NCBI GenBank assembly: GCA_963677745.1
Contig: OY782391.1
Span: forward strand, 864,001-928,000
Source: Candidatus Altimarinota bacterium
GTDB taxonomy: Bacteria; Patescibacteriota; Gracilibacteria; UBA1369
DNA: 64,000 nt
Direction of reading: 5' to 3'
The translations under genes were made by a program, and so were the position numbers. The notes under the pieces are model-generated. The model ran no database searches. It saw nothing but the letters and a program-made list of their open reading frames with translations, and was not told the origin of the DNA. This document shows positions 17,902 through 45,193 of this stretch, one piece after another. How positions within the stretch are numbered: position 1 is the stretch's first letter; every line of letters begins with the position of its first letter.

Positions 17902-18921
17902 TTAAACTCTGGGAACGTTCGGATCGGCTGGAATTGCCCCCGGTCCCTCGTTTCCACTTAGATCAACCTGCTTGAAATCCGGGCCGGCTTCTTCAGGAGT
18001 CGGTACAAGGGTATCAGCCTCAGCTGGCAGAGTATTCTGTTCAAAAGCCTTGGCTATCGCTTGAGCGGCTCTAAATTGTGCCAAAGCTTGATCTGCTTGA
18101 GCTTGTAGAGCAGGAGGTACGTTATTGCCTGCCTTGGCCAATTTCTGCTGTAAAACGCCGCTTTCCTGTCTGGCATTGGTTGCGTTGTCAACGGCCTCTT
18201 TTGCTTTTATGCCTCTATGTAATGACAAATCATCACTGACTTTTTTCAGAGATCCGCTTAAGCTGGTCAGATATGCATGATCTATTTTCATATCAGTCAG
18301 AATATCGTTAAATCTTTCTTTGACCAAAGGATCCTTTACTGCTTCAACTCCCTTGATCATCGCATCAAGATTGGCAACCCTTGCGTCAATGGAAGTCAAA
18401 GTATTGTCCAGATCTTTCTCGACAATATTTAGCGAGGTTACATCATTCGGTTTATCAAGCGGGAAGTCATTTGCAGTCAATTTTCCTAAGTCTTCCCCAT
18501 GTTTTTTGTCTTTTCCAATGGCATCCTGATCCAGCCTATATTCTCCGGCAACCTGAGTACAAGTAGTGACTTCTTTGGCTGTATTTTCCAGATTTTCCCT
18601 GGCGGCCAGAATATCATGTCTGGCTGCATCAACTGCATCTTTTATTGCGTTGATCGACCTTAACTGCTCTGCCGTCGAGGCAGAATCTCCCTCAACCTTA
18701 GTTTTATCAGGCAGTGCGCTCTCCACTTTGGTGATCGCATCCATTGCTTTTTGCTGTGCCTGTTCGGGCGTCATGCCGCCTGCGACATCCTTTTTTTCCT
18801 GTTCCTTGGCGGCCTCCAGCGCAGCCTTTTGGGCTGACTCATCTATTGGAGCATTTTCCAAATAAACAAATCTTTTTCCCAGCAGTTCCGGTTTCTCCAG
18901 ATTGAATTTGGTGTTTTGCAT
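17902..18921 (-). CDS. Hypothetical coiled-coil protein, paralog of the ORF at 18962
   Basis: Shares NTKFNxEKxxLxGKRFxY leader and a colinear helical body with its neighbour. Confidence 0.75.
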   Translation of the reverse strand: MQNTKFNLEKPELLGKRFVYLENAPIDESAQKAALEAAKEQEKKDVAGGMTPEQAQQKAMDAITKVESALPDKTKVEGDSASTAEQLRSINAIKDAVDAARHDILAARENLENTAKEVTTCTQVAGEYRLDQDAIGKDKKHGEDLGKLTANDFPLDKPNDVTSLNIVEKDLDNTLTSIDARVANLDAMIKGVEAVKDPLVKERFNDILTDMKIDHAYLTSLSGSLKKVSDDLSLHRGIKAKEAVDNATNARQESGVLQQKLAKAGNNVPPALQAQADQALAQFRAAQAIAKAFEQNTLPAEADTLVPTPEEAGPDFKQVDLSGNEGPGAIPADPNVPRV

Positions 18922-18961
18922 ATTGTAGTTCAAATTTTCTTTCGATGGATATCAATTCCAA

Positions 18962-24175: not shown

Positions 24176-25207
24176 TTATAAATCCATTCTGTACATCTGG
24201 GGTTTCTTTTCTCCTGCGGGTTCGCTGCCTGCCGTTACGGGTCTGGCAGCGGCGGTTTTATGCAACATTGTTTCCAGCGTGGCCCCGACCTTCTGGGGTT
24301 TGGTTGCTGCAGAAGTGGAGATGATTTTTTCCTTGCCGAAATTGGCCGAAAAAGCATTGTTCTTAGCCTCCTTCGCCAGCAGTTTGCGTCTTTTCTCGGG
24401 AGTCAGAGTATCGCGTATCATGGTTTTCTTCAGATTTTCATAAAGTTTGGTTCTTTCATATTCCGTTTTCCCGACGGGGCTCCTCTCCGACATTCGTATG
24501 GCCTGCGCCAATGCCGGTACTACCGGAGCTGCCGGCATCTCCGTCATGGGCTCGGCTGCAATTTGTACAGAAGCCGCTTGCGCGAAAGCCGGTTCGGCAC
24601 TGATTACCGGGGCAGCTGCCATCACCGGTTCCGGAAATTGCCCGGCCGGAACAGCTGTACTCACCGGTGCCTGTGTTTCGGCTAAAACCGCTGCCGGTGC
24701 CGTCACCACCTGTCTGACCGGCAAAATAGCTTCTTCCTTCTCAAATTTCTTTCTGTAACTCACATATCCTCCCACGCAAATCATGACCGTGGCCACCAAA
24801 GCCAGCATCACCCCGATTTCCGATTTTTTGCTCATGATATTCAGACCGAACTGGGGATGAAAATAAACCGAATTGATAATCATCAGCAGATACATGGAGA
24901 AAAACCCCATTATCATCTGCTTCATACCCAGAGGACTTTCCTGCCATTTGGCCGTTACGCCACCTTTCAACACGGCATATAAAAGCGTTCCCGCGTTGAC
25001 CAGACAGAGGGCCAGGATTGATATCCCGACAAAATAAAGGGGGCCGTTCAATGCAGTATAAAAATCACCACTCCGGAATACGTCTTTATCGCTGTACCAG
25101 CCTAAAAAAAGGCTTACCACCAGTAAAATTGTCCCGATCAGGTTCAATTTTTGACCACTGGACAATTTACGCCAAAAGTTTTGATGCATATTATTGTTTC
25201 GTGACAA
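24176..25207 (-). CDS. Hypothetical 4-TM membrane protein with Ala/Pro-rich C-terminal region
   Basis: Hydrophobicity pattern. Confidence 0.7.
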   Translation of the reverse strand: MSRNNNMHQNFWRKLSSGQKLNLIGTILLVVSLFLGWYSDKDVFRSGDFYTALNGPLYFVGISILALCLVNAGTLLYAVLKGGVTAKWQESPLGMKQMIMGFFSMYLLMIINSVYFHPQFGLNIMSKKSEIGVMLALVATVMICVGGYVSYRKKFEKEEAILPVRQVVTAPAAVLAETQAPVSTAVPAGQFPEPVMAAAPVISAEPAFAQAASVQIAAEPMTEMPAAPVVPALAQAIRMSERSPVGKTEYERTKLYENLKKTMIRDTLTPEKRRKLLAKEAKNNAFSANFGKEKIISTSAATKPQKVGATLETMLHKTAAARPVTAGSEPAGEKKPQMYRMDL

Positions 25208-25271: not shown

Positions 25272-26471
25272 ATGAAAATTGCCATAGATGTCCGTGAGGC
25301 CGATGGTCAAAAGACGGGCAAAGGCTTTTTCGCTTATGGACTGGTCAAGCAGTTGTTGGAACAGGACCTGAAAAATCACTATATACTCTACACCGACAAG
25401 GAAAAATCTCCTTTTGCCGAGTCATCCAATTCCGAAGTGCGCTTCATTGCCGGTGAAGGCCTCAAATGGCACTGGAATGTTTTAAAAGATCTCAAAACCC
25501 TGCGCCCCGACCTTTATCTGGCCCCGACCAGCTTCATCATTCCCGCCCTGGCGCCCCGCTGGCTCAAAGTGATTATCGTGGTGCACGATCTGGTGGCCTT
25601 CATGTTTCCCAGAAGCCATGCCAAAAAAGCCGTCATCATCGAGCGTCTGACTCTCCACTGGGCTCTCAAAAAAGCCCTCAAGGTGTTCGTGGTCTCCGAC
25701 AATACGCAGAACGACCTGATTAAAATTTTCCACTATCCGAAACCGTTGATGGTCAAGATTTCCTGCGCCCCGCACGCTCTTTACAAGGAGGAAATCAAAC
25801 CGGGCGAGTCCCAAAAAGTGCGCCAGAAATTCCATCTGCCGGAAAAATTTATTCTGGGTGTGGGAACTTTGGAACCCCGCAAAAACTTCAGCGCCCTGAT
25901 CAAGGCCTTTGTTATCCTGAAGCGGAAATTCCCCGAATATAAACTGGTGATTGTCGGCAAAAAAGGCTGGAAATATCAGGATATCGAACGGTCGGTGCGT
26001 GAGTTTGACCTGGAAAAAGACGTTATTTTTACGGGCTACATGTCGGACGAGGACCTGCATCATACCTATAATCTGGCTGAAGTGTTTGTCTTTCCGTCAC
26101 TCTATGAAGGTTTTGGGATTCCTCCTTTGGAAGCAATGGCCTCCGGTTGTCCGGTTATCTCATCCAATGCCGCTTCCCTGCCCGAAGTGGTGGGTGATGC
26201 CGGCCTGCTGATTGATCCCAACAGTTCGCACAAAATAGCCGATGCCGTGGCCAGCCTGATTGAAAATCCCCAGCTCAGAAACACCCTTTTGGAAAAAGGC
26301 TTTCACCGTTCCCGTAATTTCTCCTGGGAAGAGTCGGCCCGCAAAGTTCTGGAGGAATTTGATGCGGTTGAGCAGGCTCCCAGTCTCTCCAAAGAACCTG
26401 CCATCCAGCCGGAAAGCATCGCAGCGGTTTCAAAAAGCCAGGATGCAAATATCTCTAAAAAATCGGAATAA
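25272..26471 (+). CDS. GT4 glycosyltransferase
   Basis: [29 protein letters not shown]. Confidence 0.93.
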
Positions 26472-27159
26472 GATCAATAAACCATTGTAGCACCGGGCCG
26501 GGGAAACCGCTCAGGCTGCTTTGCCATAAAAACAGCAGCATTTGTCCGACAAATCCGGCTGCCAGAGGAACGGTCAGATTATCATCCAGTTTGCCTGTCC
26601 ACAGTTCCACCAGACTGGCCGTCATGGCCATCGGCAGGAAAATTCTCCAGTCACCGGGAATCACCAGCATTCCAACCACCACATTCATCATCAAACCGGC
26701 CAAAAAACCTTCCAGTGTTTTCTTTCTGAACATGCGTGTGCGGCCTACGCTCATTCCTACCAGCGCAGCCGTAATATCGCCGAAAATCGTGCAGAGCAGG
26801 GCCAGCAGGGCGATCGGGTAGTCGTAGGCCGCAAAGCATATGATGGTCGAAGCAATAAAGAAGATGTTCCCGGCAATATTGTCTTTTTCATGACGACGCA
26901 GAATATCGATCACCAGAGGCAGTCTCAGTTTATATTCCAGCCTGATGTATTCAATTTCCAGCAGTATTATCAGTAATACCGTCAAAGCCAGTATACCCAG
27001 TTTGGGGCCGTACAGACTGGCCAGCAGCGTGTAGGTGAGAAGCACCGGCAGCTCCAGAAGATGGACGAATTTTCTCAATAATTCTTTCCGGAGCGCCAGT
27101 CTGTGTTCCTCGGTTTTTTTCTGCATCAAAGCCTGTTTTTGTTCTACAGAGATCTTCAT
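26455..27159 (-). CDS. CTP-dependent polyprenol/diacylglycerol kinase (SEC59/VTE5/DGK1 family)
   Basis: RK.VH, GD..AA.VG, KKT.EG, DDNL.VP; overlaps the A2M stop codon (ATGA). Confidence 0.85.
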   Translation of the reverse strand: MKISVEQKQALMQKKTEEHRLALRKELLRKFVHLLELPVLLTYTLLASLYGPKLGILALTVLLIILLEIEYIRLEYKLRLPLVIDILRRHEKDNIAGNIFFIASTIICFAAYDYPIALLALLCTIFGDITAALVGMSVGRTRMFRKKTLEGFLAGLMMNVVVGMLVIPGDWRIFLPMAMTASLVELWTGKLDDNLTVPLAAGFVGQMLLFLWQSSLSGFPGPVLQWFIDLIPIF

Positions 27160-30100
27160 TCCGTGACATTAAACAGCTTGCCCGCGCTGCGTCCGAACAC
27201 TTCCGGGAAATATGTTTCCTGAGCCAGTGTGGGCAGATCGGCGAAGTTGCCGACCGAGGTGGCCCTCAGATAATAATCAATTTCATAGACTCCTCTGGGC
27301 AGATAGTCGGCAAAGTACATCACCCGGTCATCCCGCACCTCCGAATGGTTGAAATACCAGTCACCGTAACAATAATAACCGCAGCCTTTTCCATCGCCGC
27401 CTTTGCCGTCACCGGCCTGCAGATTCATTTCGGAAGTTTTCAGGTTAAAGTCTATGCCTTCCAGTCCGGCCGGCAGGAAATCCTCAATCATCACATAATG
27501 TCTGTCCTCCGGGACGATTATGGTCAGTTTGCCGTGCAGGTTCTGGCCGGCCTTGGCTGTTGTAACGGGAGTCTGCAGTTTGGAATCCTCAATCGTGAAA
27601 TATTCCTGCACCACTTCGATCCCTTCGTTTTCAGCCTTCTGATCCTTGAGAGGCAGATAGTATTCCAGATTCATGTCGAAGTAGAGCCGTCCGTCGCCGA
27701 TCTTCTGAGCCGCCACCTCATTGTCCAGATTGTTGGGCAACAAGTCGGTCAGGGGGATTTTGGTTTCCTTCACTTCAAAGAGATTTTTGCTGGTGAAATT
27801 GGTGTCGATGATATTCTTGCCGTTGATATCCACCAGGGCCTGATAAGCGGGGGTAAGTTCTTTCGATTTCTCCAGATATTCGATCATGGACAGCAGACCG
27901 ATGGCGGTCTCCTGGGTGGTGGAAAAATGTCCGCCTTTTCTTTCCCGCAGCAAGGCCTGTAGAATCTTGGGAATAAGCGGATTTTCAGGATTGACCCGGT
28001 TGAGGGCTTTCATGATAACCGCTGTGGTGCGGGTATTGGTATCAAACAAACTGTAATCCAGGTTTTTTTCCTGGAAACTGACGCCGCGCGGTGTCTGAAT
28101 TGAAGAATTTTCCAGATCCTTCCTGAGCGCCTCGATCTTATCGGAGGTGGACTTTTCCGAAGCCTTTTCGGAAAGCTGATTTTGGAAGGCCATCAACAGA
28201 TAGGAACGGGAAATCAGACGCAGCTGGTCTTTCTTTTCATAAAGGCTGTTGAGCATGCCCAGGTCGCCTTTGCCGGCTTCACCCAGCACATACATCACAT
28301 AAGCCTTGGTATTCAGACGGTAGTCTTCGCTTTCATTGGCATCGGCTTTCTGGGGCAGATAATTTTTAAGATATTGCAGCGCAGAGTCATAAACATCTTT
28401 ATCAATTTTATAGCCGGCCTTTTCAGCTTCGTTCATGGTGTTGACTACATAAGCCGTCAGATAGGCGCGCGGTTGGGAATTGATCCAGAGCCCGAAGCCG
28501 CCGCTGGCCTGTTGATTCTTGTAAAGTTCCTGTAAGCCGGTCTCGACATTCTTGTCCACTATGGCGGCGGTTACCCCCTCTATCTTGAATTTACCGGTAT
28601 TTAGCAGTCTCTTCGCCGCCACGTTGGGTAGAATGGCGGAAGTCAGCTGTTCGGTGCAGCCGTAGGGGAAACTGACCAGATATTTGAGACCTTCGCCGAT
28701 TGAACCGGCCAGCGTGGCGGCGGCTGTGATACGCAGCGAGCCGTCTTTCAGATTAAGTCCGATCGGCAGCCAGACCTGTTCTATTTCTTTGGCGTCGGTA
28801 GAAAGGACCTTGGCCATTGCCACGACTTCCGGGAAGCTGCTTTCCTTGACGGGCAGGGTCTGTTCGACGCTGTCCCCCCGCTCACCTCCATTGGCCACGG
28901 CGGTAAAGCTGATCTTGGCCTGATCGGCGGCACCAACCGTTACCTGCCAGTTGAGTTTCTGTGAACCCTTGGCGACTATCGTGGCGGATTTCTCCGTGCC
29001 GTCCAGTATCTGCAGTTCCCCGGATTCCAGAGTGACTTTCAGGGCCTGGTCGGTGTCGGTATAATTATGAACAATCGCCGAAATTTGCATCCGGTCGCCT
29101 TTGGTCATGAATCTGGGCAGAACTGGCCGGACCAGAATGTCCTTGTTGGACAGGAAAGAATATTTATTGCTTCCCACCAGGGCCCGGGCCGACTTGGTGT
29201 CATTGCTGATACCGATAGCCAGTACCTGCCAGGTAGTCAGATTATCGGGTAACTTGAATTCCAGCGTTCCCTCGCCATTGGCATCGGTATTGAGCGTGGC
29301 CTCAAAATAAGCCGTATCTTTGAAAGTGGCGCGTTTCTCGGTATCACCGCCGCCTCCGCCTTTCATTCCCGCCTCCACCTGTACATTGATTCTGGAAATG
29401 GCTTTGGTCAGGGTATGGGCAATGTTAACTCCCAGTAACCTCTTTCGGTAAAATATATTGAGCAAATCGGCTGTCACGCTTTCAGTCAGACTGAGCACGC
29501 TTTCGTCAACCACCGCCAGTGACAGTTCGGCCGCCACCGGTTGGGCGCCGGCGTCGGTTGTTTTTACGGTCAGTTTAACCGTCTCTCCCGGCGAGTAGCG
29601 GGCCTTATCACTCTTGATATCTATATTCAACCGTTTGCCTTCCGTATTGACCTGCAGAGTGGCATAGCCGACCTTGAAAGCCGCCACCTGCCGTTCGTCC
29701 GGCGCACCCTCCGCCGGCGCCGTCAGTCCCGCATCATAGGCATTGCCTTTCATCAGTACCACCGATACGAAAACGTTTGGTAAAAACTTTTCGGTAATCG
29801 GCACTTCAATGGTTTGTGAATTGGATTCCAGTTTGATCACTTTCTGATCCAGCACTTTGTCTTTCTCGTAGGTAACCAGCGCATAGACGTTCCGGTAAGG
29901 GGATTTGACCATTACCCTGGCGGTATCGCCGACTTTGTATTCCATCTTGTCGGTTACCAGTTCGATTTTGTCGTTGTTTTCACTGCCCCAGTTTACAAAG
30001 TCACCGGAACTGACATAGACGGTTGTGGAACTGACAATCTGGTTGTTTTTCTCATCTTTGCCGGTTGCTTCGACTTTGTATACCCCGCCCTTGGCAAATT

Positions 30101-33100
30101 TGAATTCCAAAGTGCCCAAGCCGTGTTCGGCGGTTTTGACGGTCTTCTTTTCCAGCAGTTTATCGTCGTAACTGTTTTCAAAATAATAATCTCCGTCCAC
30201 ATTCTTGCGTTTTACCGTGTTCCAGCTTCTTTCATAGAGCGCCACTTCCACTTCTTTCCCGGGCAGTTCCCGGCCGTCGCTGCTCACAGTGAGTACATCG
30301 AATTTGGCCGGCTTTTCCGTGTCGGCCAGATAGTCTTGACTGCGGATTCCCACATAGAATGATCCTTTGTGTACCGGGAAACTGATGCGGTTGGAGACGC
30401 TCTGATTATTGGCATCCGTTACGGAAGCTTCCAGCGTGTAGATTTGGCTTATTTTCTTGTCGCTGATATTGAGCGGCAAAGTCACCAGGGCCAGACCCTG
30501 TTCATCGGTTTTGCCTTTGCCCTGGCTGACTATGGAATTTTCTCCGACGCAGCCCCAGTAACAGAAATAACCTTCATCGGCGAAGCTGAACCAGCCTCCG
30601 GCCAGTTTGGCGGCCAGTTCTTCTGGCAGGATAAAATAATAATCCTGAGCCTTGAGAGTCCATCTGATTTCAGCGTCTTTGAGAGGTGCGCCGAAGAAAT
30701 ACCCGGCTTCCACCCTCACGTTGGCGCTTTGATTGTTCACATATTCTTTTTTGTCGCTGGAAAGATCCAGTTTGTATTCCGGCTTGCGGTATTCATAAAC
30801 CTTGAAGGAAGCGTAAAATTCCGTCATCCAGGAGGGACCTTTGGCATCCAGCAATTCAGTGTGAATCGAGAAGTCGCCGGTCGGAATTTTGTCCCCCAAA
30901 GTCAGTTTGCCGATAAAGGTGCCGTTGTTGCTGATGGCCAGCTCCTGCTGGTAAATCTGATTGCTCTGGGCATCGTTGATGGTAACTTTAACTTTTTTCA
31001 GGTCTGGCAGTTTGAATTTATAATCTTTTTCCTGGCGGACAATGCCCTTGAAATAGACCTCCTGTCCCGGCCGGTAAATCGGACGGTCGGTGTATTGATA
31101 CAGATAATATTCCGGGGAAACCGGTTCCGAATTGATATTGAAATTCCAGGGGGCGATTCCTTCGCTCCAGCTGGTATGGACAAAGCCCGTATCATTTTCG
31201 CGGTCGCCAAAAACCAGGAAATCTCTGTAAAAATCTCCGCTGGCCCCAGGCAGTTTGATTCTCGCCAGTCCGCTGGCATCCGTTTCTCCGCTGGCCGCCT
31301 CGGTATGCAGCGCGTCCATTACCGTGATTTTCTCACCGGCAACAGGTTTACCGTCCTTCAGATCGGTGGCCCAGACCAGCATTTCGGTCAAAGTGGTTTT
31401 GATGGCCAGTGAAGTCTTGCTGACCACGAAGAGAGTTTTCTCGATTTTCGGAACTTCATGACAACCCGGATTTTCTTTTGACTGCCACTCATAGACACAT
31501 TCGGTGGTGGTGACTTTGGGGTTGCCGAGTTCCAGATAGTAAAAACCGCCGGCCAGTTTACCGCCGCTCAGGGCATCCAGATCAAGGGCGGTGTGGCCCT
31601 TCTCATTGAAGCCCAGTGTGACGGCCAGTTTACCTTCAAAATCAAAATCTGTCAGAGACTTGAAGGTTTCATTATTATAATCGATATAACCCTCAGAATA
31701 TAATCTTGAAAACTGTTCCGGGGTCAGTTTCTTTAGTTTGAAAGCCGCATAATCGATATTGACCGATTTTACGTAAAACCTGCTGGCCTGATAGCCGTCC
31801 AGTACGCTCAAATCGGTGCCCTTTTCCAGATCCAGTGCCGGTTTGGAAGCGGGTGTCGTGAATTTCAGTTCGGTTTTTTCATTGTAACCGTTTCCGAAAT
31901 AATCTTTGACGCCCGGGTCGATCGTAATTGTATAGTCGGTGGAAGGCAGATAATTATATCCAATATGAACTGAAGTATCGGTATATGTAACCACCTCTAC
32001 CGGAACCGGACTGCCCTTTTCGTCCTTCTGGGAAGGCTCTATCCGCACCTTGCCGCGGAAGCTGCGCAGATCCAGGGGGTTGCTGTAGCCGAAAACCGGA
32101 TATATAGAATTTGGATCGTCATTGTTTTTACTGTCTGATGAAAGCAGTTTCAATTCACCCAGAGTTCTCATTTCATAATTGACATCATTACCGGTGGTAA
32201 GCGGTCCCTCCGCGCCTTTCAGACCTTTTCTGATTTGCAATGCATAATTGGTGTCCGCTTTCATTTTTTGGGAAGGTGAAATAACCAGCATTTTTTGCAG
32301 CTCATCTTCCTTGAGAACTTCAACCTTGTCACCTTCTCCCGAAGAAGCAGTGGTGGGGGCTTCCTTGATCTCTTCATATTGACTCATTTCCGTGATTTCA
32401 ATCAGCCGCTTTTGCTGCTCTTTCCAGTCATCGGCTGTAAAATATCTCACGGATATGCCTTCCTCATTGGTTTTATTGTCTTCAACCCTGTTCAGCTTAA
32501 TCAGTTCTTTGGCGCTGCCCAGATCCACCTTCTGGTTAAAACTAATCACAAACCGGCTGCCGGTGGAGACCTGATAGGAATTTTGCGTATCAGTAGTGTG
32601 CCAGTTCTGCGCTTCGGGCCGGAGTGTCTCAAAGCTGGAAGTAAACTCGCCTTCCGTATAACCGCCGTCCAGCACCTGTGTGCCCTGCGGGATAGTCACC
32701 TTATAAGCGGTGGACAGGGCCAGTTTGTCGGGAATGAACTGAATGGCCGAGGTGCCCAGCCACTTGAAGCGGCCCTGAACATAAGGTTCAATCTTGATAT
32801 TGGGGAAATTCTCCCGGCCCGCATCCAGTGTGGTCAGTCCGGTCAGGGGACGGTCAAACATGATATTGATCTTACTGTCTGCCGTTATCGCCTTGGAACC
32901 GTCATTGGGAGTCATCAGCACCACCTTGGGCGGGGCGACGATTTTATAGAATTCACTGTAATCGCCGGCCAGCGGTTTCTGGAGGAAACTGACAGCTTCC
33001 TTGCCGACGGTGATCTTGTAGGTATCGCCGATTTTCAATTGCTCGGCCGGCTTGAAGATCAGGCTGTTGCCCTGCCAGCTGAAAGTACCTTTGGTTTCCG

Positions 33101-33536
33101 GTTCAATGCGGAAAGCTTTTTCCACCGACGCGTTGTTCATCAATTGGTTGAAAGTGATTTTCAGCGGGGCATTGACCGAAATATTACGGGTACCGCCTTT
33201 CATCAGATAACCCTGAACGGTAGGGGCGGGAATCATTGGATAAGAAATTATTCCGGCCAGTACCACCACCACCAGTGTGCCCAGTGCCATTGCCCAGCCT
33301 CTGACCCTGAAATCGGACCACAGACTGAAACGTTTCTCTGTCTTTTCCTTTTTTGATGTATTCATAGTGTGGTGTTTTTCAAGTAATTGATTTTTTAAAT
33401 TTTGTGAAAACTGCCGGTCGGCCGGTTGCGGTCCGTTCGATTTAATGGCATCGGTTAGCTCGGACCATTGTGGGTCCTTCCCGCTGTTCTCCAGCCTTTT
33501 TTCCAGCTCCCTGATTTTTTTATTGGGTCGCAGCAT
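27156..33536 (-). CDS. Membrane-anchored alpha-2-macroglobulin with Ig-like repeats and a cytoplasmic N-terminal extension
   Basis: YTDRPIYRPG, EY.KP, LAVVDE, LPDNLTTW, thioester motif FPYGCTEQ, STTQE, TYFPEV.GR; TM helix around aa 82-100. Confidence 0.93.
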   Translation of the reverse strand: MLRPNKKIRELEKRLENSGKDPQWSELTDAIKSNGPQPADRQFSQNLKNQLLEKHHTMNTSKKEKTEKRFSLWSDFRVRGWAMALGTLVVVVLAGIISYPMIPAPTVQGYLMKGGTRNISVNAPLKITFNQLMNNASVEKAFRIEPETKGTFSWQGNSLIFKPAEQLKIGDTYKITVGKEAVSFLQKPLAGDYSEFYKIVAPPKVVLMTPNDGSKAITADSKINIMFDRPLTGLTTLDAGRENFPNIKIEPYVQGRFKWLGTSAIQFIPDKLALSTAYKVTIPQGTQVLDGGYTEGEFTSSFETLRPEAQNWHTTDTQNSYQVSTGSRFVISFNQKVDLGSAKELIKLNRVEDNKTNEEGISVRYFTADDWKEQQKRLIEITEMSQYEEIKEAPTTASSGEGDKVEVLKEDELQKMLVISPSQKMKADTNYALQIRKGLKGAEGPLTTGNDVNYEMRTLGELKLLSSDSKNNDDPNSIYPVFGYSNPLDLRSFRGKVRIEPSQKDEKGSPVPVEVVTYTDTSVHIGYNYLPSTDYTITIDPGVKDYFGNGYNEKTELKFTTPASKPALDLEKGTDLSVLDGYQASRFYVKSVNIDYAAFKLKKLTPEQFSRLYSEGYIDYNNETFKSLTDFDFEGKLAVTLGFNEKGHTALDLDALSGGKLAGGFYYLELGNPKVTTTECVYEWQSKENPGCHEVPKIEKTLFVVSKTSLAIKTTLTEMLVWATDLKDGKPVAGEKITVMDALHTEAASGETDASGLARIKLPGASGDFYRDFLVFGDRENDTGFVHTSWSEGIAPWNFNINSEPVSPEYYLYQYTDRPIYRPGQEVYFKGIVRQEKDYKFKLPDLKKVKVTINDAQSNQIYQQELAISNNGTFIGKLTLGDKIPTGDFSIHTELLDAKGPSWMTEFYASFKVYEYRKPEYKLDLSSDKKEYVNNQSANVRVEAGYFFGAPLKDAEIRWTLKAQDYYFILPEELAAKLAGGWFSFADEGYFCYWGCVGENSIVSQGKGKTDEQGLALVTLPLNISDKKISQIYTLEASVTDANNQSVSNRISFPVHKGSFYVGIRSQDYLADTEKPAKFDVLTVSSDGRELPGKEVEVALYERSWNTVKRKNVDGDYYFENSYDDKLLEKKTVKTAEHGLGTLEFKFAKGGVYKVEATGKDEKNNQIVSSTTVYVSSGDFVNWGSENNDKIELVTDKMEYKVGDTARVMVKSPYRNVYALVTYEKDKVLDQKVIKLESNSQTIEVPITEKFLPNVFVSVVLMKGNAYDAGLTAPAEGAPDERQVAAFKVGYATLQVNTEGKRLNIDIKSDKARYSPGETVKLTVKTTDAGAQPVAAELSLAVVDESVLSLTESVTADLLNIFYRKRLLGVNIAHTLTKAISRINVQVEAGMKGGGGGDTEKRATFKDTAYFEATLNTDANGEGTLEFKLPDNLTTWQVLAIGISNDTKSARALVGSNKYSFLSNKDILVRPVLPRFMTKGDRMQISAIVHNYTDTDQALKVTLESGELQILDGTEKSATIVAKGSQKLNWQVTVGAADQAKISFTAVANGGERGDSVEQTLPVKESSFPEVVAMAKVLSTDAKEIEQVWLPIGLNLKDGSLRITAAATLAGSIGEGLKYLVSFPYGCTEQLTSAILPNVAAKRLLNTGKFKIEGVTAAIVDKNVETGLQELYKNQQASGGFGLWINSQPRAYLTAYVVNTMNEAEKAGYKIDKDVYDSALQYLKNYLPQKADANESEDYRLNTKAYVMYVLGEAGKGDLGMLNSLYEKKDQLRLISRSYLLMAFQNQLSEKASEKSTSDKIEALRKDLENSSIQTPRGVSFQEKNLDYSLFDTNTRTTAVIMKALNRVNPENPLIPKILQALLRERKGGHFSTTQETAIGLLSMIEYLEKSKELTPAYQALVDINGKNIIDTNFTSKNLFEVKETKIPLTDLLPNNLDNEVAAQKIGDGRLYFDMNLEYYLPLKDQKAENEGIEVVQEYFTIEDSKLQTPVTTAKAGQNLHGKLTIIVPEDRHYVMIEDFLPAGLEGIDFNLKTSEMNLQAGDGKGGDGKGCGYYCYGDWYFNHSEVRDDRVMYFADYLPRGVYEIDYYLRATSVGNFADLPTLAQETYFPEVFGRSAGKLFNVTE

Positions 33537-33539
33537 CGG

Positions 33540-34133
33540 CTAAAATAGGTTATTTAAATCGGGTTTTATTTTGCGCAGGACGCGGTAGAGAATGATGCCT
33601 ACATTGCTTTCGGAGAGGTTTAGTGTCAGGGCAATTTCCCTGTTGGTCAGTCCGCTGAAGAATTTCATCTGCAGAATGGAAAGTTCCCGTTCGGGCAATT
33701 TATGCATTACCTCACGCACTTTTTCCTTAAGTTCACTTTCCTTGGCCTGGACGGCCGGCTGAAAATCCTTTTTTTCGTCTTTTATTTCCATTCCCTCTTC
33801 CAGCGGCAGATTTTCCGTCCGATGGTTTTTGGCATAGAAGTCGAAAACCACATTGCGGGTAACCGTGAACAGCCAGGCTGCAAACGGCAGCCCCCGGTCA
33901 TGGTAGCCGGGCAGGTTTTCCAGGATTTTCATAAACACGTCGCTGACAATGTCCTCCGCAGCCGATTGATTGCCGACTTTGGACATGACAAAGGCGTAAA
34001 CCCGGGGAAAATAAAAGTCATACAGTTGGGCGAAGGCTTCACTGTCGGTCTTGGCGCGTTCCACTATTTGCGGATCAAAATCTTTTTTTTGTTCCAAGGA
34101 CTGTATCACAAATTCCCTAAATTTATAAGCCAT
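33540..34133 (-). CDS. ECF RNA polymerase sigma factor
   Basis: AF.QLY, AED..S.VF, F.AWL...RN, region-4 HTH (EIA..L..S..NV); 197 aa. Confidence 0.93.
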   Translation of the reverse strand: MAYKFREFVIQSLEQKKDFDPQIVERAKTDSEAFAQLYDFYFPRVYAFVMSKVGNQSAAEDIVSDVFMKILENLPGYHDRGLPFAAWLFTVTRNVVFDFYAKNHRTENLPLEEGMEIKDEKKDFQPAVQAKESELKEKVREVMHKLPERELSILQMKFFSGLTNREIALTLNLSESNVGIILYRVLRKIKPDLNNLF

Positions 34134-34220
34134 TTATCAGCCAAAGACAAGTGGTTGCATCGGCTGCCGGCTAATAATCAAAACAGTCCCCCAAAAAAAG
34201 TATTACATATTTTCCCGGAT

Positions 34221-35156
34221 CTATTTCCAGAATCCTTTTCCTTTGTTTAAATCCAGCCCTGATTCCTGGGCCAGCTCCTGGTAAAGAGTTTTTTCTTTTT
34301 TGGAAAGTTTGTTCGGCACCACCACGTTGATTTTTACATAATGATCGCCTTTTTCATCGCTGTGTAGTTTTTGGACGCCGTAACCTTTCAGTTTGAAAAC
34401 TTTACCGGGTTGTGAACCGGCTGGAATCTTCAGCGTTACTTCACCCTGTAGTGTTTTTATTTTTATCTCGCCCCCCAATACCGCCATCAGCAGGCTGATT
34501 TCGGAGCTGCTATGAATATCAAAACCATTTCTGATAAATTCACGGTGCGGTGCCACGCGAATATGTACGTACAGGTCTCCGGCCGGTCCTCCGTTGCTGC
34601 CCGGGTCGCCTTTGCCGGACAATCTGACCACCGAATCGTTATCTACGCCCGCCGGTATCTTTACTTTAAGTGTTTCGGTGGTTTTCTCACCGCTTTTCTT
34701 GGGTCTGGTGATCACCAGTTCTTTATCGCAGCCGAAAACCGCTTCCTCAAATTCCACCCGCAACTCAAACTCCAGATTGCGGCCTTTGCGGGGGCCGTTG
34801 CTTCGCCCTCCGAAACCGGTGAAAAAGGCCTCAAAAATATCAGCAAAGCCCTGTCCGTCAAAATTGGTCTGATAACCGCTGAAGTCAAAACCTCCAAATC
34901 CTCCTCCGGCTCCACCACCGCCGCCTCCGCCAAAATTGCCGGCTGACTCGCCGAACTGATCATACATGGCCTTCTTCTGGGGATCACTAAGGGTCTGGTA
35001 AGCGTTGTTTATTTCCTTGAATTTTTCCTCGGCCGTTTTATCGCCTTTGTGTTTGTCGGGATGCCATTCCATGGCCAGTTTTCTGTAGGCCCGCTTGACG
35101 TCCGTTTCATTGGCATCTTTCTTGATGCCCAAAATTTCATAATAATCTTTTGCCAT
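34221..35156 (-). CDS. DnaJ-family chaperone, class II (no zinc finger)
   Basis: DYYEILG, HPD, G/F-rich linker, C-terminal domains; CxxCxGxG repeats absent. Confidence 0.92.
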   Translation of the reverse strand: MAKDYYEILGIKKDANETDVKRAYRKLAMEWHPDKHKGDKTAEEKFKEINNAYQTLSDPQKKAMYDQFGESAGNFGGGGGGGAGGGFGGFDFSGYQTNFDGQGFADIFEAFFTGFGGRSNGPRKGRNLEFELRVEFEEAVFGCDKELVITRPKKSGEKTTETLKVKIPAGVDNDSVVRLSGKGDPGSNGGPAGDLYVHIRVAPHREFIRNGFDIHSSSEISLLMAVLGGEIKIKTLQGEVTLKIPAGSQPGKVFKLKGYGVQKLHSDEKGDHYVKINVVVPNKLSKKEKTLYQELAQESGLDLNKGKGFWK

Positions 35157-35567: not shown

Positions 35568-35589
35568 AATGCAAATTATTAATTTCAAC

Positions 35590-37578
35590 ATGTCTACAAA
35601 CAAGTCTTTTCCTCACAGCTCCGGCAACAACCCTGCTCTCACGGTAGGTAGTTCCGCTCTGGAATCACAAGGGCTGGATCAGCAGTCACTGCAACTTCTT
35701 CCCGCCTCTGCCCATCCGGTTTTGTCTGCCCGTGAGTTATTGGCCCAGGCTGTAAAAAACCTGGCTGAGAATGAGCAGAAACGGTCTGAAATGAATCGGC
35801 AGCAAGAGGCCCGGATGCGGCAGCAGCTGGAGGAAAGTCAAAAAGAAGCCCGTCGGCAATATGAACTGCAATTAGCCGCATATAATAATGCCAAAGCACA
35901 GGCTGTGGAACATCGTCAGAAATATAAAGAAACATGCGTTAAAGAAATTGCCAGAAGCTGTGAAAATCCGGTATTTTTTCAGGAACATGCCGTCAAATAT
36001 CTGGTTGAACACAAACAGGAAATCCTCGACCATTTGCGTCAAGATCTGATTGGCGGCGGAAGGGGTGTAATCGATTCGGATCACTTGACTGCCCATATTT
36101 TCAATAAATATATTTTTCCGGCAATTGCTTCTCAGGTTCAATTTCCAGATGCCAAGAGTTTCTCTGCTGACCATCTTTTAGCTGATGTTACCACCGTGGG
36201 GATATTTTTACGGCATGCCTTGACTGACTTTTTTGATGATCTGAAAAGAGGTGCGGGCACTCACAATCTTTCCGGCTATTTGCGTGAGCTCCAATTATCT
36301 GAAGCCACAGACCTGCAAGACCTTGGCAAACGGCTGCAGTCCTTTGCCAAAGAGCGTGGATGGGATAGCAGGAGTTTTAGTGATAATCGCCGTTCTGTCA
36401 CCGGTGGAAAAATTTTACAGGAATGTTCCAGGACTGAGATCCTGTCCAATCTTGGTTACTATATTTATGAAGGGACCAGCAGTTTTAACGTAACCAACCA
36501 GAATATTGACCTTAAAAACCCGGACAGTCTGGAAAATTATTATCAAAAACTTTTACAGTCAATGGTCCCCGTAACTCCGGCCATCGTCCCTCAGGCCCCG
36601 CCTCCTAAACCTGAGCAGGACATTGTACAGGGATCTCCAAAACCGCAAGTACCCAAAGAACAGGAAACTCTTCTGGATGCCAAAGATATCCTTCCCAACC
36701 TGGAAGGACTGCACAACTTAAAAAGGGAGATGGAGATTCATTTGATCCGGGTTAGCTTGCACGATCAGGCTGATGGAGCCTCTACCCCCGAAGCAATGAG
36801 TCAGGTGGACCGGGACTTCCTTTCCCAATTCAATGAGAGAGCCAATCCGGGAAATATCATCGAAGAATACAAAAACCTGCCGCCGCTCTTTGTCTTGATT
36901 TTAGCTTTGATGTATTACCGAGCCTATCTGTGGATTTATGGTAAAAGTTGGAAAGGTCAGTGTGCTGAAAAGGATCGAAGTCGTGTCAGCCGCCAAATCA
37001 GCCGCAGCCAGTGGCTGAAAAAAGAGCACACTACCACCGAAGGCGTGGCCGACCTCTACAATTTTATCAACTACGTCTACCGGATTTATGACCAGGGGAT
37101 GTCCTATATCAGGCATGGTTCGGACAGGCAGAAGCGCCTGGGGCGGGTACTGCTGGAAGTAGCCCGCATCAATGCCGACATGATCAAAGAAGTTACCGCC
37201 AACCTGGAAATCAAGATCAGACATGGCGATACCGAAGAATTTGCCAAAAGATTGCGTCTCTCCACCGCTAACGTCGCATCTCTTATCTCCGGCAGTCCGG
37301 AAGAGGTGATGGCCCTGATGGAAGCCGCCCAGGAAGGATTGCAAATTGGCAAGGAAATCAGTGAGGTGGCCGGTTCAAGCCGGGACCAGCTGGCCGGATT
37401 TGACCGGAGACTGGCTGAAAGTACCGCTGCCTTAACAATCACAGCAAAACCCGTTGGTAATGTTCGCGTTCAGAGCGCCGGAGATTCTCCAAGTGAGGAA
37501 GACACACAAGCTGAGGCAGAAGCCGAAGCAATGGCACAGGAAGAAGCTGCTGCCGCAGCCAGTCGTAATCTGATGTAA
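35590..37578 (+). CDS. Large hypothetical helical protein
   Basis: Coiled coil, central Pro-rich linker, acidic Ala-rich tail; no recognised family. Confidence 0.7.
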   Translation: MSTNKSFPHSSGNNPALTVGSSALESQGLDQQSLQLLPASAHPVLSARELLAQAVKNLAENEQKRSEMNRQQEARMRQQLEESQKEARRQYELQLAAYNNAKAQAVEHRQKYKETCVKEIARSCENPVFFQEHAVKYLVEHKQEILDHLRQDLIGGGRGVIDSDHLTAHIFNKYIFPAIASQVQFPDAKSFSADHLLADVTTVGIFLRHALTDFFDDLKRGAGTHNLSGYLRELQLSEATDLQDLGKRLQSFAKERGWDSRSFSDNRRSVTGGKILQECSRTEILSNLGYYIYEGTSSFNVTNQNIDLKNPDSLENYYQKLLQSMVPVTPAIVPQAPPPKPEQDIVQGSPKPQVPKEQETLLDAKDILPNLEGLHNLKREMEIHLIRVSLHDQADGASTPEAMSQVDRDFLSQFNERANPGNIIEEYKNLPPLFVLILALMYYRAYLWIYGKSWKGQCAEKDRSRVSRQISRSQWLKKEHTTTEGVADLYNFINYVYRIYDQGMSYIRHGSDRQKRLGRVLLEVARINADMIKEVTANLEIKIRHGDTEEFAKRLRLSTANVASLISGSPEEVMALMEAAQEGLQIGKEISEVAGSSRDQLAGFDRRLAESTAALTITAKPVGNVRVQSAGDSPSEEDTQAEAEAEAMAQEEAAAAASRNLM

Positions 37579-37919: not shown

Positions 37920-39011
37920 ATGAAAGCGTCTAATACGAGCACACCATTCAGGGAAGAAGTTGATTTCACAATGCAGATAGAGCCACGCCACAACCCTATG
38001 GAATGGGCAGACTTCCATAATAATTACCCCCCTTGTTCAGTCGCCATCGACGGCTATGTGAAAGGCGGTGTCCACAAAGACCTGGCCAAACCCATCGCCT
38101 CCTATGACCATCACCTGGATCCGGAAGAGCAGGATAAAAAAATGGTGGACCGGTCATCGATGAGGGCGACCATGGGCCAGATTATGATGGCTGTCCGCGG
38201 GGGATTTTATTCGGTTTTCCGCAATGAATACGGACCCAAGGTCAATGCCTTTTTCAAGGGCTGCGATGAAGATGATTGTTTCAGCAAACTGCTGCTGGCA
38301 GAACCGCAATTGATTTTTAGTGATGTGCGCGGCCGTCTGGAGCGCCTGGTGGGATTGGCCGAAAAAATGGACACCACCGCCGGAACTTATCAGACCTATC
38401 CGGATTCAAAACTTTACGAAGCTCTGGTTTGGGTCACCGATCCCTACCGGGAATTCCGGCAAAGCGGCCAGCTGGACCATCATATTGCCAAAGAATACGC
38501 CGACATCATGGACCAGGTGGGGACACGCATTAAACGCTTTATTAACGGAACCCACCGCCATCTCAAACCGGACACCAGCTATCTGGAACTGGGCGGCGGA
38601 CCCGGCTGGATTATGATCGAGGAAACCGGCAAACAGGGCCGCATGGGCGCCATTAACGACGGCTACCAGGCCATTGTCTCGGTCCGCCGCCTGCCCAACG
38701 GCAAGTACGCTTATGTTTTTACCAGACTCTCCGATTATATTACCTATTTTGATCTGCCCTTTTTTATCAGGACTCTCAACACTTTCGAATTGATGAACGG
38801 GAATTCGACACATCAATGGGGAGGCAGCGGGGATTTGGTTATGGGCAGTCCCTGGGGAGTCGGTACGGATTTGGACCCCGTAGCCATGGAAGCTCTCATT
38901 AACAAGATGATGACCCATGCAGTTCCAGCATCCCTGATTGAAAATCTGCCCCGCAACGGAAACGACAATGGTAACGATCATCACCATAAACGTTTGCAGA
39001 TTTGCCACTGA
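37920..39011 (+). CDS. Hypothetical protein, possible DHH-like phosphoesterase
   Basis: AIDG, YDHH, DEDD and WGGS...GSP motifs. Confidence 0.55.
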   Translation: MKASNTSTPFREEVDFTMQIEPRHNPMEWADFHNNYPPCSVAIDGYVKGGVHKDLAKPIASYDHHLDPEEQDKKMVDRSSMRATMGQIMMAVRGGFYSVFRNEYGPKVNAFFKGCDEDDCFSKLLLAEPQLIFSDVRGRLERLVGLAEKMDTTAGTYQTYPDSKLYEALVWVTDPYREFRQSGQLDHHIAKEYADIMDQVGTRIKRFINGTHRHLKPDTSYLELGGGPGWIMIEETGKQGRMGAINDGYQAIVSVRRLPNGKYAYVFTRLSDYITYFDLPFFIRTLNTFELMNGNSTHQWGGSGDLVMGSPWGVGTDLDPVAMEALINKMMTHAVPASLIENLPRNGNDNGNDHHHKRLQICH

Positions 39012-39792: not shown

Positions 39793-39847
39793 TTGAATTC
39801 CAGTCAGGCTTCAAAAGTGTTATAATACAAAGATATTAAGTTTGATT

Positions 39848-41293
39848 ATGCTTTTTGGATTGTTGGGCAAAAAATCGGGAGAAAGTGAAAGACCGGCGAA
39901 ACACCGGGAGTCTGCTCGGAACAGACCTGATGCCGCCCCCATCGTGAACACTTCCCCGGCAGACAAATCTGCCGAAGCCGAACAGATAGATGAAAAGCGG
40001 CGCCAGTTAACGCAGGGTATTTTGGCTTTGATCGGTGCCGCGACTTTGGGAAAAGTTTTACCGGGCTGCACCACCTATGAGGATTACACCAAGAGATTTA
40101 AAAACAATTTTGATTACTGTCCGGACAAACAGTTTACCGAGGAAGATCTGGAAACGGCCAACAGCCGCAACAAAGTAAAAATGAATGCGGAGGATTGCCG
40201 TTGGATTTTCCAGAAGGCGATGGACGAACAATTGTCGGACCGGATCGACCTGGACGACATTTTTTACCTGCACGACTCAGAGGGGCTGGTTACTGCCACC
40301 AATAAAATTTTAAGTCCGGAAAGCCAGCAGGCCCTGATGAAGAAATACCCCTTTATCCAGTCGATCAAAGAGGTGGAAAGCCTTACTTATATCTTTAATT
40401 ATGAGTTCACCACCGATCATGGTTACCTCTATTTTTCGGTTAATAAAAGCAGGGTGGTGGTGAATGACTTTGGTCTGGGCTGCAGCATCGGCATGCTCTA
40501 TAACACCAGTGATCCCTATGTACAGACCAGCCCTGAATACCGGGATTATCAGCGCAGGGTAACCGTCTCCGGCCAGAATAAACAGGGGGGTAAATATCTG
40601 CGGGAACTTACCTGCGAAACCGGACATGGCGTCCTGGAACACCAGGGGTTGAGGGTGCAGGCCTTCTCCAGCGACCAGTTTCCCAGAGAACATATTTATG
40701 AAACGGAAACTTTTACCGAATTTCTCAGAAATACTCAAAGCACGCCGGTGGTGGACTCATTTCTTAAAAATGTAAAGGAACAGAATGAGCTGCTCCAGGA
40801 AGAAAAAAATGGGGTACCTCCAGCTCCTTCCGAATCAGCGTTCAGTTTGACCAATATCGAAAAGATTGATCAGTTGATTGAAATTTTCAGGTTATTGCCG
40901 GCTGATCCAAAAATGTACGGTTTGCTGCTCAGATCCTGTCTGCAGTACAAGCTATATGACAGGACTGTCAAAGATGAATTCAGAAATCCCGTCACCACTT
41001 TGCGCTCGGGATGGGCCGATTGCGATGATTTCGCCGTGATAAATTATTTCTGGGCTTTTCTGCACCGCTTCAATCCCAATATGACGGTAATCACAAATAA
41101 TCGAAATAACAGCCATCATGTTTTTATCTGGTACAGGGATGATCAAGACCGTTTTGTTGTTATGGACAACAATGACACACTGGAACTGGATTCAAGCTAT
41201 GACGTCGAAAAATATCTGCAGGACTTTAGCAGCAACTATCAAGGTGCAAAGAAAGGAGACAGTTACACCATCAATTATAATGATCCTGTGTAA
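39848..41293 (+). CDS. Putative exported protein/lipoprotein with C-terminal transglutaminase-like Cys-His-Asp domain
   Basis: RRQL + hydrophobic stretch + LPGC; P..TL..G.ADCDDFA, HVF, VMDN. Confidence 0.65.
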   Translation: MLFGLLGKKSGESERPAKHRESARNRPDAAPIVNTSPADKSAEAEQIDEKRRQLTQGILALIGAATLGKVLPGCTTYEDYTKRFKNNFDYCPDKQFTEEDLETANSRNKVKMNAEDCRWIFQKAMDEQLSDRIDLDDIFYLHDSEGLVTATNKILSPESQQALMKKYPFIQSIKEVESLTYIFNYEFTTDHGYLYFSVNKSRVVVNDFGLGCSIGMLYNTSDPYVQTSPEYRDYQRRVTVSGQNKQGGKYLRELTCETGHGVLEHQGLRVQAFSSDQFPREHIYETETFTEFLRNTQSTPVVDSFLKNVKEQNELLQEEKNGVPPAPSESAFSLTNIEKIDQLIEIFRLLPADPKMYGLLLRSCLQYKLYDRTVKDEFRNPVTTLRSGWADCDDFAVINYFWAFLHRFNPNMTVITNNRNNSHHVFIWYRDDQDRFVVMDNNDTLELDSSYDVEKYLQDFSSNYQGAKKGDSYTINYNDPV

Positions 41294-45065: not shown

Positions 45066-45193
45066 CCCCAAAGTTTAAATTTAAACTTTAAGATCGCTTT
45101 TACTCAAGGTAAAAAAGCGGTCGCACTACTATGTACGTCAAGTTCAGACTTTATGTACATCGATGTTTATTTATCTATCTATTTATTCTAATT

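Follow-up and report, generated by a model that had tools for sequence, protein, structure and literature searches.

A membrane-anchored alpha-2-macroglobulin that probably serves as anti-sigma factor to a neighbouring ECF sigma factor in a Patescibacteriota genome

Introduction

Can a bacterial protease trap also hold the transcription factor that is encoded beside it? The question is raised by two adjacent genes on the minus strand of a 64,000 bp stretch of DNA, here called the window, which spans positions 864,001 to 928,000 of contig OY782391.1 in the Candidatus Altimarinota bacterium assembly GCA_963677745.1, a genome that consists of a single 1.34 Mb contig. The first gene (33540..34133 of the window) encodes a 197 aa extracytoplasmic function (ECF) sigma factor, and the second (27156..33536) a 2126 aa membrane-anchored alpha-2-macroglobulin (A2M). 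Pairs of ECF sigma and anti-sigma factors are a major route of trans-membrane signalling, though the signal that is sensed is mostly unknown, and bacterial A2Ms are lipoprotein-anchored periplasmic traps that are often encoded next to pbpC. A preliminary description of the locus, made from the DNA alone, proposed that the cytoplasmic end of this A2M is an anti-sigma domain, and that cleavage of the bait by a foreign protease could be transmitted across the membrane to release the sigma factor. Here, using computational evidence throughout (sequence, tree and structure-prediction analyses), we find that the sigma factor encoded next door is very probably sequestered by the domain at the inner end of the A2M, so that the trap may control its own production.

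The sigma factor and the A2M

The sigma factor matches the Pfam families Sigma70_r2 (E 7.3e-15), Sigma70_r4_2 (2.1e-10) and Sigma70_ECF (3.6e-7), and scores 102 bits against the NCBIfam model TIGR02937 (sigma70-ECF), for which the cut-off is 42.9. With regions 2 and 4 only and a length close to 200 aa, it belongs to group 4. The best named NCBIfam model was that of the BldN family, although the score of 127 bits falls short of that model's cut-off of 206, and the best sequence match in the PDB was 6dxo_A (E 1.8e-16), which we take to be a BldN complex. The TAG stop codon of the sigma gene is followed by CCG and then by the ATG of the A2M gene, leaving the gap of 3 nt that the preliminary description had reported. 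In 10 orthologous loci the gap is 2–13 nt, and in one the two genes overlap. From this spacing, we infer that the sigma factor and the A2M are co-transcribed.

The A2M, orthologues of which were found in 33 of 41 related genomes, contains the Pfam set Big_5 (three stretches), bMG3, MG2, bMG6, A2M_BRD, A2M, TED_complement and bMG10. Residues 1–83 are charged and free of Cys, and the first hydrophobic 19-mer, which is the only one near the N-terminus, is residues 84–102 (33231..33287, minus strand; mean Kyte-Doolittle 2.21). Because this single transmembrane (TM) helix lies behind a charged, Cys-free segment, the hydropathy scan and a reading of the sequence leave no N-terminal signal peptide or lipobox. 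The first Big_5 Ig-like stretch follows at residues 104–193 (32958..33227, minus strand; E 2.7e-30), and the three stretches are a putative stalk joining the membrane to the A2M core, which extends from bMG3 to bMG10 (residues 705–2112; 27201..31424, minus strand). The Arg and Lys residues before the TM helix, together with the extracytoplasmic nature of A2M domains, point to an N-in orientation. The protein has the generic layout of a membrane anti-sigma factor, with a cytoplasmic N-terminus, one TM helix and an extracytoplasmic C-terminus. The preliminary description had noted the same order of parts, with about 80 charged residues, one TM helix, Ig-like repeats and a complete A2M, and its observations were correct in each detail that was checked.

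The N-terminal domain and its predicted complex with the sigma factor

The anti-sigma-like domain comprises residues 1–57 (33366..33536, minus strand) and is followed by a charged linker of residues 58–83 (33288..33365, minus strand) that begins at Met58. AlphaFold2 (AF2) run on the N-terminus alone gave three helices, at residues 6–16, 22–34 and 41 onward, the last of which extends to approximately residue 57. In an alignment of 12 orthologues (A1), M1, L15, F43 and L47 are invariant and K7, P36 and L51 nearly so, while residues 58–83 are poorly conserved and variable in length. The ratio of non-synonymous to synonymous substitution (dN/dS) for codons 1–57 was 0.25–0.54, with dS saturated, and points to purifying selection on these residues. 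Over the same codons the annotated frame is open, and the other two frames have stops.

Translation could instead begin at Met58, with the preceding 57 codons being an untranslated leader, and the preliminary description had named such a start as fatal to its proposal. Met58 does exist, and the A2M open reading frame (ORF) of a relative that lacks the sigma factor (L004) begins near the equivalent position. However, as M1 is invariant, residues 1–57 are conserved at the protein level in 12 orthologues, dN/dS is below 1 and only the annotated frame is open, we reject this start. It is further contradicted by the position of the first A2M ATG, which lies 3 nt past the sigma stop codon in three genomes, and can be dismissed with near certainty.

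The complex of the sigma factor with the A2M N-terminus was predicted from our own alignments of 11 sigma factors and 12 N-termini, in three runs accompanied by three controls. The ipSAE was 0.87 (0.86–0.87 over the three runs), compared with 0.00 for the best of the three controls, and the partner pLDDT was 76, with at least 84% agreement in contacts among runs. The mark applied to such complexes was attained by 58 of the 80 solved complexes and 2 of the 110 mismatched pairs used for calibration, counts that hold only roughly where own alignments are used. In the predicted complex, A2M residues 4–32 contact sigma residues 132–197 (region 4), and the helix that carries F43, L47 and L51 contacts sigma residues 34–71 (region 2); overall, the sigma residues contacted are 29–71 and 132–197. 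The prediction thus places helices 1 and 2 on region 4, with helix 3 occupying region 2. The segment that the preliminary description had singled out as an anti-sigma domain (P..F...L...L) is therefore the one predicted to sit on region 2, with F43, L47 and L51 invariant or near-invariant, and the binding that it had proposed is predicted strongly.

In the ESM Atlas, a Chloroflexota cluster in which 39% of members have zf-HC2 ranked first (0.87) for the N-terminus and a DUF5667 cluster ranked 23rd, with all scores below 0.9. These are leads only and were not used as evidence.

Sigma factor and N-terminal extension across the order

In a first set of 20 loci, the sigma gene was directly upstream of the A2M gene in 12, all of which have the N-terminal extension, and five loci had neither. 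The remaining three were a remnant in genome G014 and two fragments. A survey was then made of 205 genomes of the order, in which bMG10 (PF17973) matched 103 places in 97 genomes. Eighty distinct frames of 1600–2300 aa were kept and their 5' regions fetched, with 23 places dropped: one was a second match in the same frame, 19 were in frames below 1600 aa, representing genes that are split or cut off at contig ends, and three were in frames above 3800 aa. An ECF sigma ORF was found directly upstream of 57 of the 80 A2M genes, with gaps of -62 to +78 nt and one of 222 nt.

The first hydrophobic stretch starts at residue 38–103 in all 57 sigma-linked A2Ms. In 20 of the 23 A2Ms without a sigma gene it is found at residue 18 or earlier, a position that indicates a probable signal peptide or short anchor, and the other three comprise the G014 remnant and two ORFs that are over-extended from a TTG start. 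Under a first-ATG rule, sigma gene and long N-terminus agree in 79 of 80 genes, though both this rule and the threshold of at least 35 residues were chosen after the data had been seen. For one of the 80 (L070), the DNA extends only 35 nt upstream, too little for judging whether a sigma gene is absent. The adjacency of the two genes is conserved among relatives and varies together with the N-terminal extension, as the proposal of the preliminary description called for.

As the relatives are not independent of one another, a tree was built with the ectodomain alone. At least 10 changes in sigma state occur on this tree, and supported branches provide six independent contrasts, in which the long N-terminus changes in the same direction in 5.8 on average and never in the opposite direction (sign test, p ~0.03). 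The G014 locus (L005/L072) is an intermediate of decay, with an intact promoter box, a 44-codon remnant of the sigma gene and a half-eroded N-terminus, while the core of its A2M keeps CTEQ. In L004/L091 (G024) a natural deletion has removed the sigma gene together with A2M residues 1 to approximately 57, leaving an A2M ORF that starts near the equivalent of Met58, directly after a DnaJ-like gene, and that retains the linker of residues 58–83.

The domain as a module

A profile search of the same 205 genomes with the N-terminal domain returned 30 loci, of which 27 have the sigma gene directly upstream; two of the other three are at contig ends and one is the G014 remnant. Not all of these loci encode an A2M. 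In family f13, the domain is part of a free-standing protein of 268–271 aa (L047 898-1704, L048 883-1692 and L050 898-1713, all on the minus strand) that has a TM helix, one Big_5 domain and a charged coiled tail. The adjoining sigma factor is orthologous, matching the sigma profile at E ~1e-68, and in the one f13 genome that was searched with the A2M (G036) the short protein was the only match at E ≤0.001.

Three further N-terminal types, read from the sequences, are found on sigma-linked A2Ms of other families. These sister families (L051-L059 and L093-L139) have shorter A2Ms of approximately 1640–1940 aa, with an ECF sigma gene upstream. The 57 A2M-linked sigma factors fall into four clades of 18, 6, 16 and 17 rows (SH-aLRT 97, 99, 91 and 100, respectively), and these clades correspond to the four N-terminal types, which is the pattern that co-evolving sigma/anti-sigma pairs would give. 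Together with one paralogue from the genome under study, the A2M-linked sigma factors share one side of a branch (support 87), apart from 11 sigma factors from outside the Candidate Phyla Radiation (CPR) and two further paralogues; four outgroup rows (L153, L161, L170 and L193) were left out of this tree for poor coverage.

The nearest sigma factors outside the lineage, from Chloroflexota and others (33–40% identity), are accompanied by a short single-pass partner and never by an A2M. Sigma partners from Caldilineaceae align to A2M residues 22–63 over 42 columns (hhalign probability 65%, E 6e-5). When genome contigs were searched with the whole A2M no relative was found, but a query with the sigma alignment did find relatives.

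The genome itself encodes an RseP-type M50 site-2 protease of 544 aa with two PDZ domains, and three further ECF sigma factors outside the window (G000:C1 692097-693900, 439646-442311 and 547297-548698), each with a gene for a single-pass membrane protein behind it. Of these partners, one has FecR and DUF5667, and another has an N-terminus of a pattern similar to that of the A2M (...DPSFSSKLRLSIIDKA) and a sigma factor that groups with the A2M-linked ones. With the protease and three further pairs of ECF sigma factor and single-pass protein, conventional ECF signalling is in place in this genome.

A candidate promoter upstream of the sigma gene

A putative autoregulated ECF promoter was recognised by motif conservation, with a -35-like box, TGTAATAC, at 34200..34207 and a -10-like GTTT 15 nt past it at 34181..34184, both on the minus strand. 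TGTAAT(A/G)(C/G) and a T-run are present upstream of the sigma gene in all 11 loci of the clade that includes the window (clade A), as is GTT some 15–16 nt downstream of the box, and a candidate promoter of the form TGTAATAC-N15/16-GTT hence precedes every clade-A sigma gene. The three f13 loci have a variant, TGTAATA(T/A)...CGTTAC. Among loci without an intact sigma gene, the G014 remnant retains the motif, and none of the five sigma-less A2Ms has it upstream. The promoter and the start of the sigma gene are separated by a region (34134-34180, minus strand) in which a short stretch, CTTGTCTTTGGC, is conserved in L001-L003 and, in altered form, in L006, L008 and L011. This stretch could be either a leader element or an upstream region for alternative starts.

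Across the genome, the pattern TGTAATA[CG]-N14-17-GTT has seven matches, against approximately five expected by our own rough estimate, and two of the seven are intergenic and correctly oriented. A gene with a Pfam match to TMEM43 was considered as a further member of the regulon and was rejected, as the motif is not conserved before its orthologue in the sister genome G002. Another occurrence, TGTAATAC-N16-GTTAT, is upstream of a gene for a 618 aa putative lipoprotein with an LSAC lipobox and no Pfam match (G000:C1 ~782729-784647, minus strand). Because the best match beyond the operon is not conserved in the sister genome, the operon itself is the only supported target.

Bait region and thioester

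The bait-region segment (residues 1363–1405; 29322..29450, minus strand) lies between A2M_BRD (1191–1350) and A2M (1408–1503). The preliminary description spoke of a minimal KGGGGG bait, and KGGGGG is indeed found at residues 1392–1397. The bait is better described as a segment of approximately 43 residues, YRKR...KGGGGG...KRATF, and its conservation is unusual: bait regions are usually variable, and this one (...SRINVQVEAGxKGGGGG..KRxxFKDTA) is strikingly conserved in clade-A orthologues, down to approximately 45% overall identity. The thioester motif CTEQ, residues 1627–1630 (28647..28658, minus strand), is intact, as had been noted, and 16 of the 18 full-length clade-A genes that were checked have CxEQ.

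Neighbouring genes

The probable third gene of the operon (26455..27159, minus strand) encodes a 234 aa polytopic membrane protein with a weak Pfam match to CTP_transf_1 (E 3.9e-6). Its start and the A2M stop share 4 nt, and the gene is directly downstream of the A2M gene in 18 of 20 related loci, whether or not the sigma gene is present. The 234 aa protein is a conserved partner of the A2M. On the other side, a DnaJ/CbpA-like gene (34221..35156, minus strand; Pfam DnaJ and DnaJ_C) ends 14 nt before the promoter box, and is also the upstream neighbour in close relatives, including the sigma-less L004, L005, L007 and L009.

Further away on the opposite strand, 8–12 kb from the A2M gene, are genes for a class A penicillin-binding protein (PBP) with transglycosylase and transpeptidase domains (41928-44504, plus strand; 8 kb from the A2M gene) and for a 1453 aa protein with three SLH domains (45131-49492, plus strand), the latter of which suggests an S-layer-bearing envelope. 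Five ORFs of 343–669 aa had no Pfam match at the thresholds used (35569-37578, 37920-39011 and 39842-41293 on the plus strand; 24176-25207 and 17902-18933 on the minus strand).

Discussion

Gene coupling, joint gain and loss, modularity, predicted binding and a conserved promoter, all established in silico, lead us to regard the A2M as probably a bifunctional single-pass protein, with a protease trap outside and a three-helix anti-sigma domain inside that sequesters the ECF sigma factor of an autoregulated operon. Outside the cell membrane, the Big_5 stalk would present an A2M core whose bait region and thioester make it a protease trap. Inside, the first 57 or so residues would sequester the co-translated sigma factor at the membrane. 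Once free, the sigma factor would transcribe its own operon, comprising the genes for the sigma factor, the A2M and the 234 aa membrane protein, from TGTAATAC-N15/16-GTT. Release would occur when the ectodomain has been destroyed or consumed, the likeliest route being truncation by attacking proteases or turnover of the spent trap, followed by intramembrane cleavage by the RseP-type site-2 protease of this genome. An attack by proteases would in this way raise the synthesis of new single-use traps. A loop that yields one sigma factor per consumed molecule is attractive, given that each A2M can act as a trap only once, and protease attack is a plausible trigger.

A more specific version of this scheme is possible, but we put it forward only tentatively. 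In it, a protease alarm would have the A2M as its receptor and also as its effector: a cut in the bait or stalk would be followed by RseP-type cleavage, the three-helix domain would be degraded and the sigma factor would re-induce the operon, such that each consumed trap orders its own replacement. The system would then have radiated in Peregrinibacteria-like CPR bacteria into at least four co-evolving types, and its domain would be a class III-like one outside Streptomyces.

Several observations weigh against these interpretations and need to be set beside the rival explanations that they favour. By neither sequence nor fold did the N-terminus match any described anti-sigma family. Searched against Pfam at E ≤10, residues 1–110 gave chance-level matches only, with no zf-HC2 or RskA; a profile search of the PDB with alignment A1 gave nothing relevant; and a profile search of 1.84 billion representatives returned only seven proteins, all of A2M length or fragments, while a word-based search with residues 1–110 found seven A2M proteins and nothing useful beyond them. 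Foldseek found no match to the isolated AF2 model of the N-terminus in the PDB, a result that says little because the pTM of that model was 0.33. The hhalign support for the Caldilineaceae partners, at 65%, is modest. The complex score is the confidence of the model in its own prediction, and with sigma/anti-sigma complexes present in the PDB a passing score may partly reflect likeness to solved complexes. Since related genomes are not independent, the count of 57 in 80 overstates the number of events, which the tree puts at 6–10. If the N-terminus were not an anti-sigma domain, the sigma factor might merely drive expression of the A2M, with the extension serving localisation or another partner, and the lack of detectable homology to known anti-sigma domains would be accounted for. 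However, that would leave the extension and the sigma gene being gained and lost together, N-terminal types that track sigma clades, a domain found only beside this sigma family, even on a protein that is not an A2M, and a predicted complex with the canonical dual interface to regions 2 and 4. We consider this explanation very improbable.

Other observations bear on what is sensed rather than on the domain. The genome-wide pattern search found no regulon beyond the operon. With the operon as the only supported target of the promoter motif, and the sigma factor and A2M translationally coupled, the circuit might be a homeostatic loop with no external signal, in which the domain titrates the sigma factor 1:1 and release follows from turnover or from slow insertion of the A2M into the membrane. 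This design is, however, common to ECF systems that do respond to signals, and so is compatible with one; an RseP-type protease with PDZ domains is present; and the sigma gene and domain have repeatedly been lost while the A2M was kept, from which it follows that expression of the A2M does not need the loop. A purely homeostatic role thus appears quite improbable. CxEQ is missing in 2 of 12 sigma-linked full-length clade-A genes (2 of 18 full-length genes overall) and in 5 of 6 sigma-linked A2Ms fetched from the other N-terminal types, namely all four from types B and C and one of the two from type D, the other having CVEQ. As so many sigma-linked A2Ms lack the motif, thioester chemistry cannot be the general signal. 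The bait is also approximately 1300 residues away from the membrane, and the f13 protein has no A2M part at all. Of the original proposal, the part in which the N-terminus behaves as an anti-sigma domain has stood up, while bait cleavage as the signal has been weakened. The same losses of CxEQ, the pairing of the same sigma factor and domain with a bare Big_5 ectodomain in f13, the conservation of a bait that might be expected to vary, and the envelope-related neighbours (a PbpC-type PBP upstream in L010 and L019, and the CTP-transferase-like protein downstream in 18 of 20 loci) would fit an anti-sigma factor that responds to another envelope cue, such as the state of the cell wall, contact with a host cell or a ligand, with the A2M fold acting as a binding or conformational sensor. 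Against this, the protein in the window is complete in its type-I A2M domains, bait region and CTEQ included, and the retention of CxEQ in 16 of 18 clade-A genes argues that the trap function is under selection in the clade. We consider an envelope cue unlikely, albeit the strongest of these rivals, and prefer the bifunctional trap and anti-sigma factor described above.

Here the biochemistry of the proposed sensor, a protease trap, is well understood, which provides a concrete and easily testable hypothesis. If it is correct, this anti-sigma factor would be the first to be the stress effector as well and would provide the first link of bacterial A2Ms to gene regulation, and the system would point to a regulated surface defence in episymbiotic CPR bacteria, in which regulation is almost unexplored. 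The four co-evolving types of sigma factor and domain are a source of natural sigma/anti-sigma pairs that may be orthogonal, and the natural variants that lack both the sigma gene and the domain are ready-made controls.

Comparison with known systems

Full-text literature searches did not find a published connection of A2Ms with ECF or anti-sigma factors. Neither 'macroglobulin' nor 'Patescibacteria' occurs in the main text of the ECF re-classification (PMC7826278), though its supplementary group descriptions might list such an architecture. The probable ECF/anti-sigma system described here, with a protease trap as anti-sigma factor, is widespread in one CPR order, and no published description of it was found. 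Membrane A2M proteins of 2368 and 1895 aa have been reported in another CPR bacterium, Vampirococcus lugosii, and were proposed to be a defence against host proteases, in a paper whose main text does not mention a sigma factor (PMC8080830).

Among characterised A2Ms, MagD of Pseudomonas aeruginosa is thioester-less, as are the sigma-linked A2Ms of types B and C, whereas the protein in the window keeps CTEQ. MagD is part of a multi-protein mag operon, for which no sigma factor is reported in the portions of the two papers drawn on here (PMC5764988, PMC3735191). The type I bacterial A2Ms of E. coli (ECAM or YfhM) and Salmonella (PMC4498604) have MG domains, a bait-region domain, a thioester domain that carries CxEQ and an MG10 at the C-terminus, all of them shared with the window protein, as is outward-facing anchoring in the cytoplasmic membrane. 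However, ECAM is anchored via a lipobox, and the window protein via a TM helix behind an 83-residue cytoplasmic domain. The window protein also has three extra Big_5 domains and is coupled to an ECF sigma factor.

The linkage to pbpC known for ECAM is not seen in the window, where the sigma gene and then the DnaJ-like gene are upstream of the A2M gene. The preliminary description had contrasted the locus with pbpC-linked lipoprotein A2Ms, and for the window this is right on both counts, with no lipobox and no adjacent pbpC. It does not extend to all relatives, as a PBP gene is directly upstream of the sigma gene or sigma-less A2M gene in L010 (8603-9355), L019 (7456-8211) and L015 (7802-9151), all on the minus strand. 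The product has a BiPBP_C domain, and so is of the PbpC type, in L010 and L019, where the gene adjoins the sigma gene, and has a transpeptidase domain in L015. In L010 and L019, the classical linkage of pbpC and A2M therefore persists with the sigma gene wedged between them.

As a regulatory system, the pair resembles RseA-sigmaE and RsiW-sigmaW, the class I systems released by regulated intramembrane proteolysis, in being a probably co-transcribed pair with a proposed single-pass anti-sigma factor, a predicted dual interface and a putatively autoregulated operon, and an RseP-type M50 protease with PDZ domains is likewise encoded in this genome. A dual interface with sigma-4 and sigma-2 is described as common to anti-sigma domains, and the class I domain (ASDI) as having four helices, of which a three-helix bundle lies on sigma-4 and the fourth on sigma-2 (PMC7406223). 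Class I domains often have a zinc motif; the A2M N-terminus, with three predicted helices, is Cys-free and has no HxxxCxxC. In class III, RsbN of Streptomyces venezuelae is a single-pass membrane anti-sigma factor with a three-helix cytoplasmic N-terminus, in which helix 3 is placed between sigma-2 and sigma-4 and helices 1 and 2 on sigma-4, and its homologues are described as confined to Streptomyces (PMC6101532). The domain of the A2M is like that of RsbN in its three predicted helices and in how the predicted contacts are divided, and BldN, the partner of RsbN, is the family that came closest to the window sigma factor, albeit with a score below the cut-off. Unlike RsbN, the A2M has an ectodomain of 2000 aa, and as the PDB profile search detected no sequence similarity to RsbN we stop short of assigning the domain to class III. 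In the number of its predicted helices and the predicted split of contacts between regions 4 and 2, it nonetheless resembles the class III pair RsbN-BldN rather than the four-helix domains of class I.

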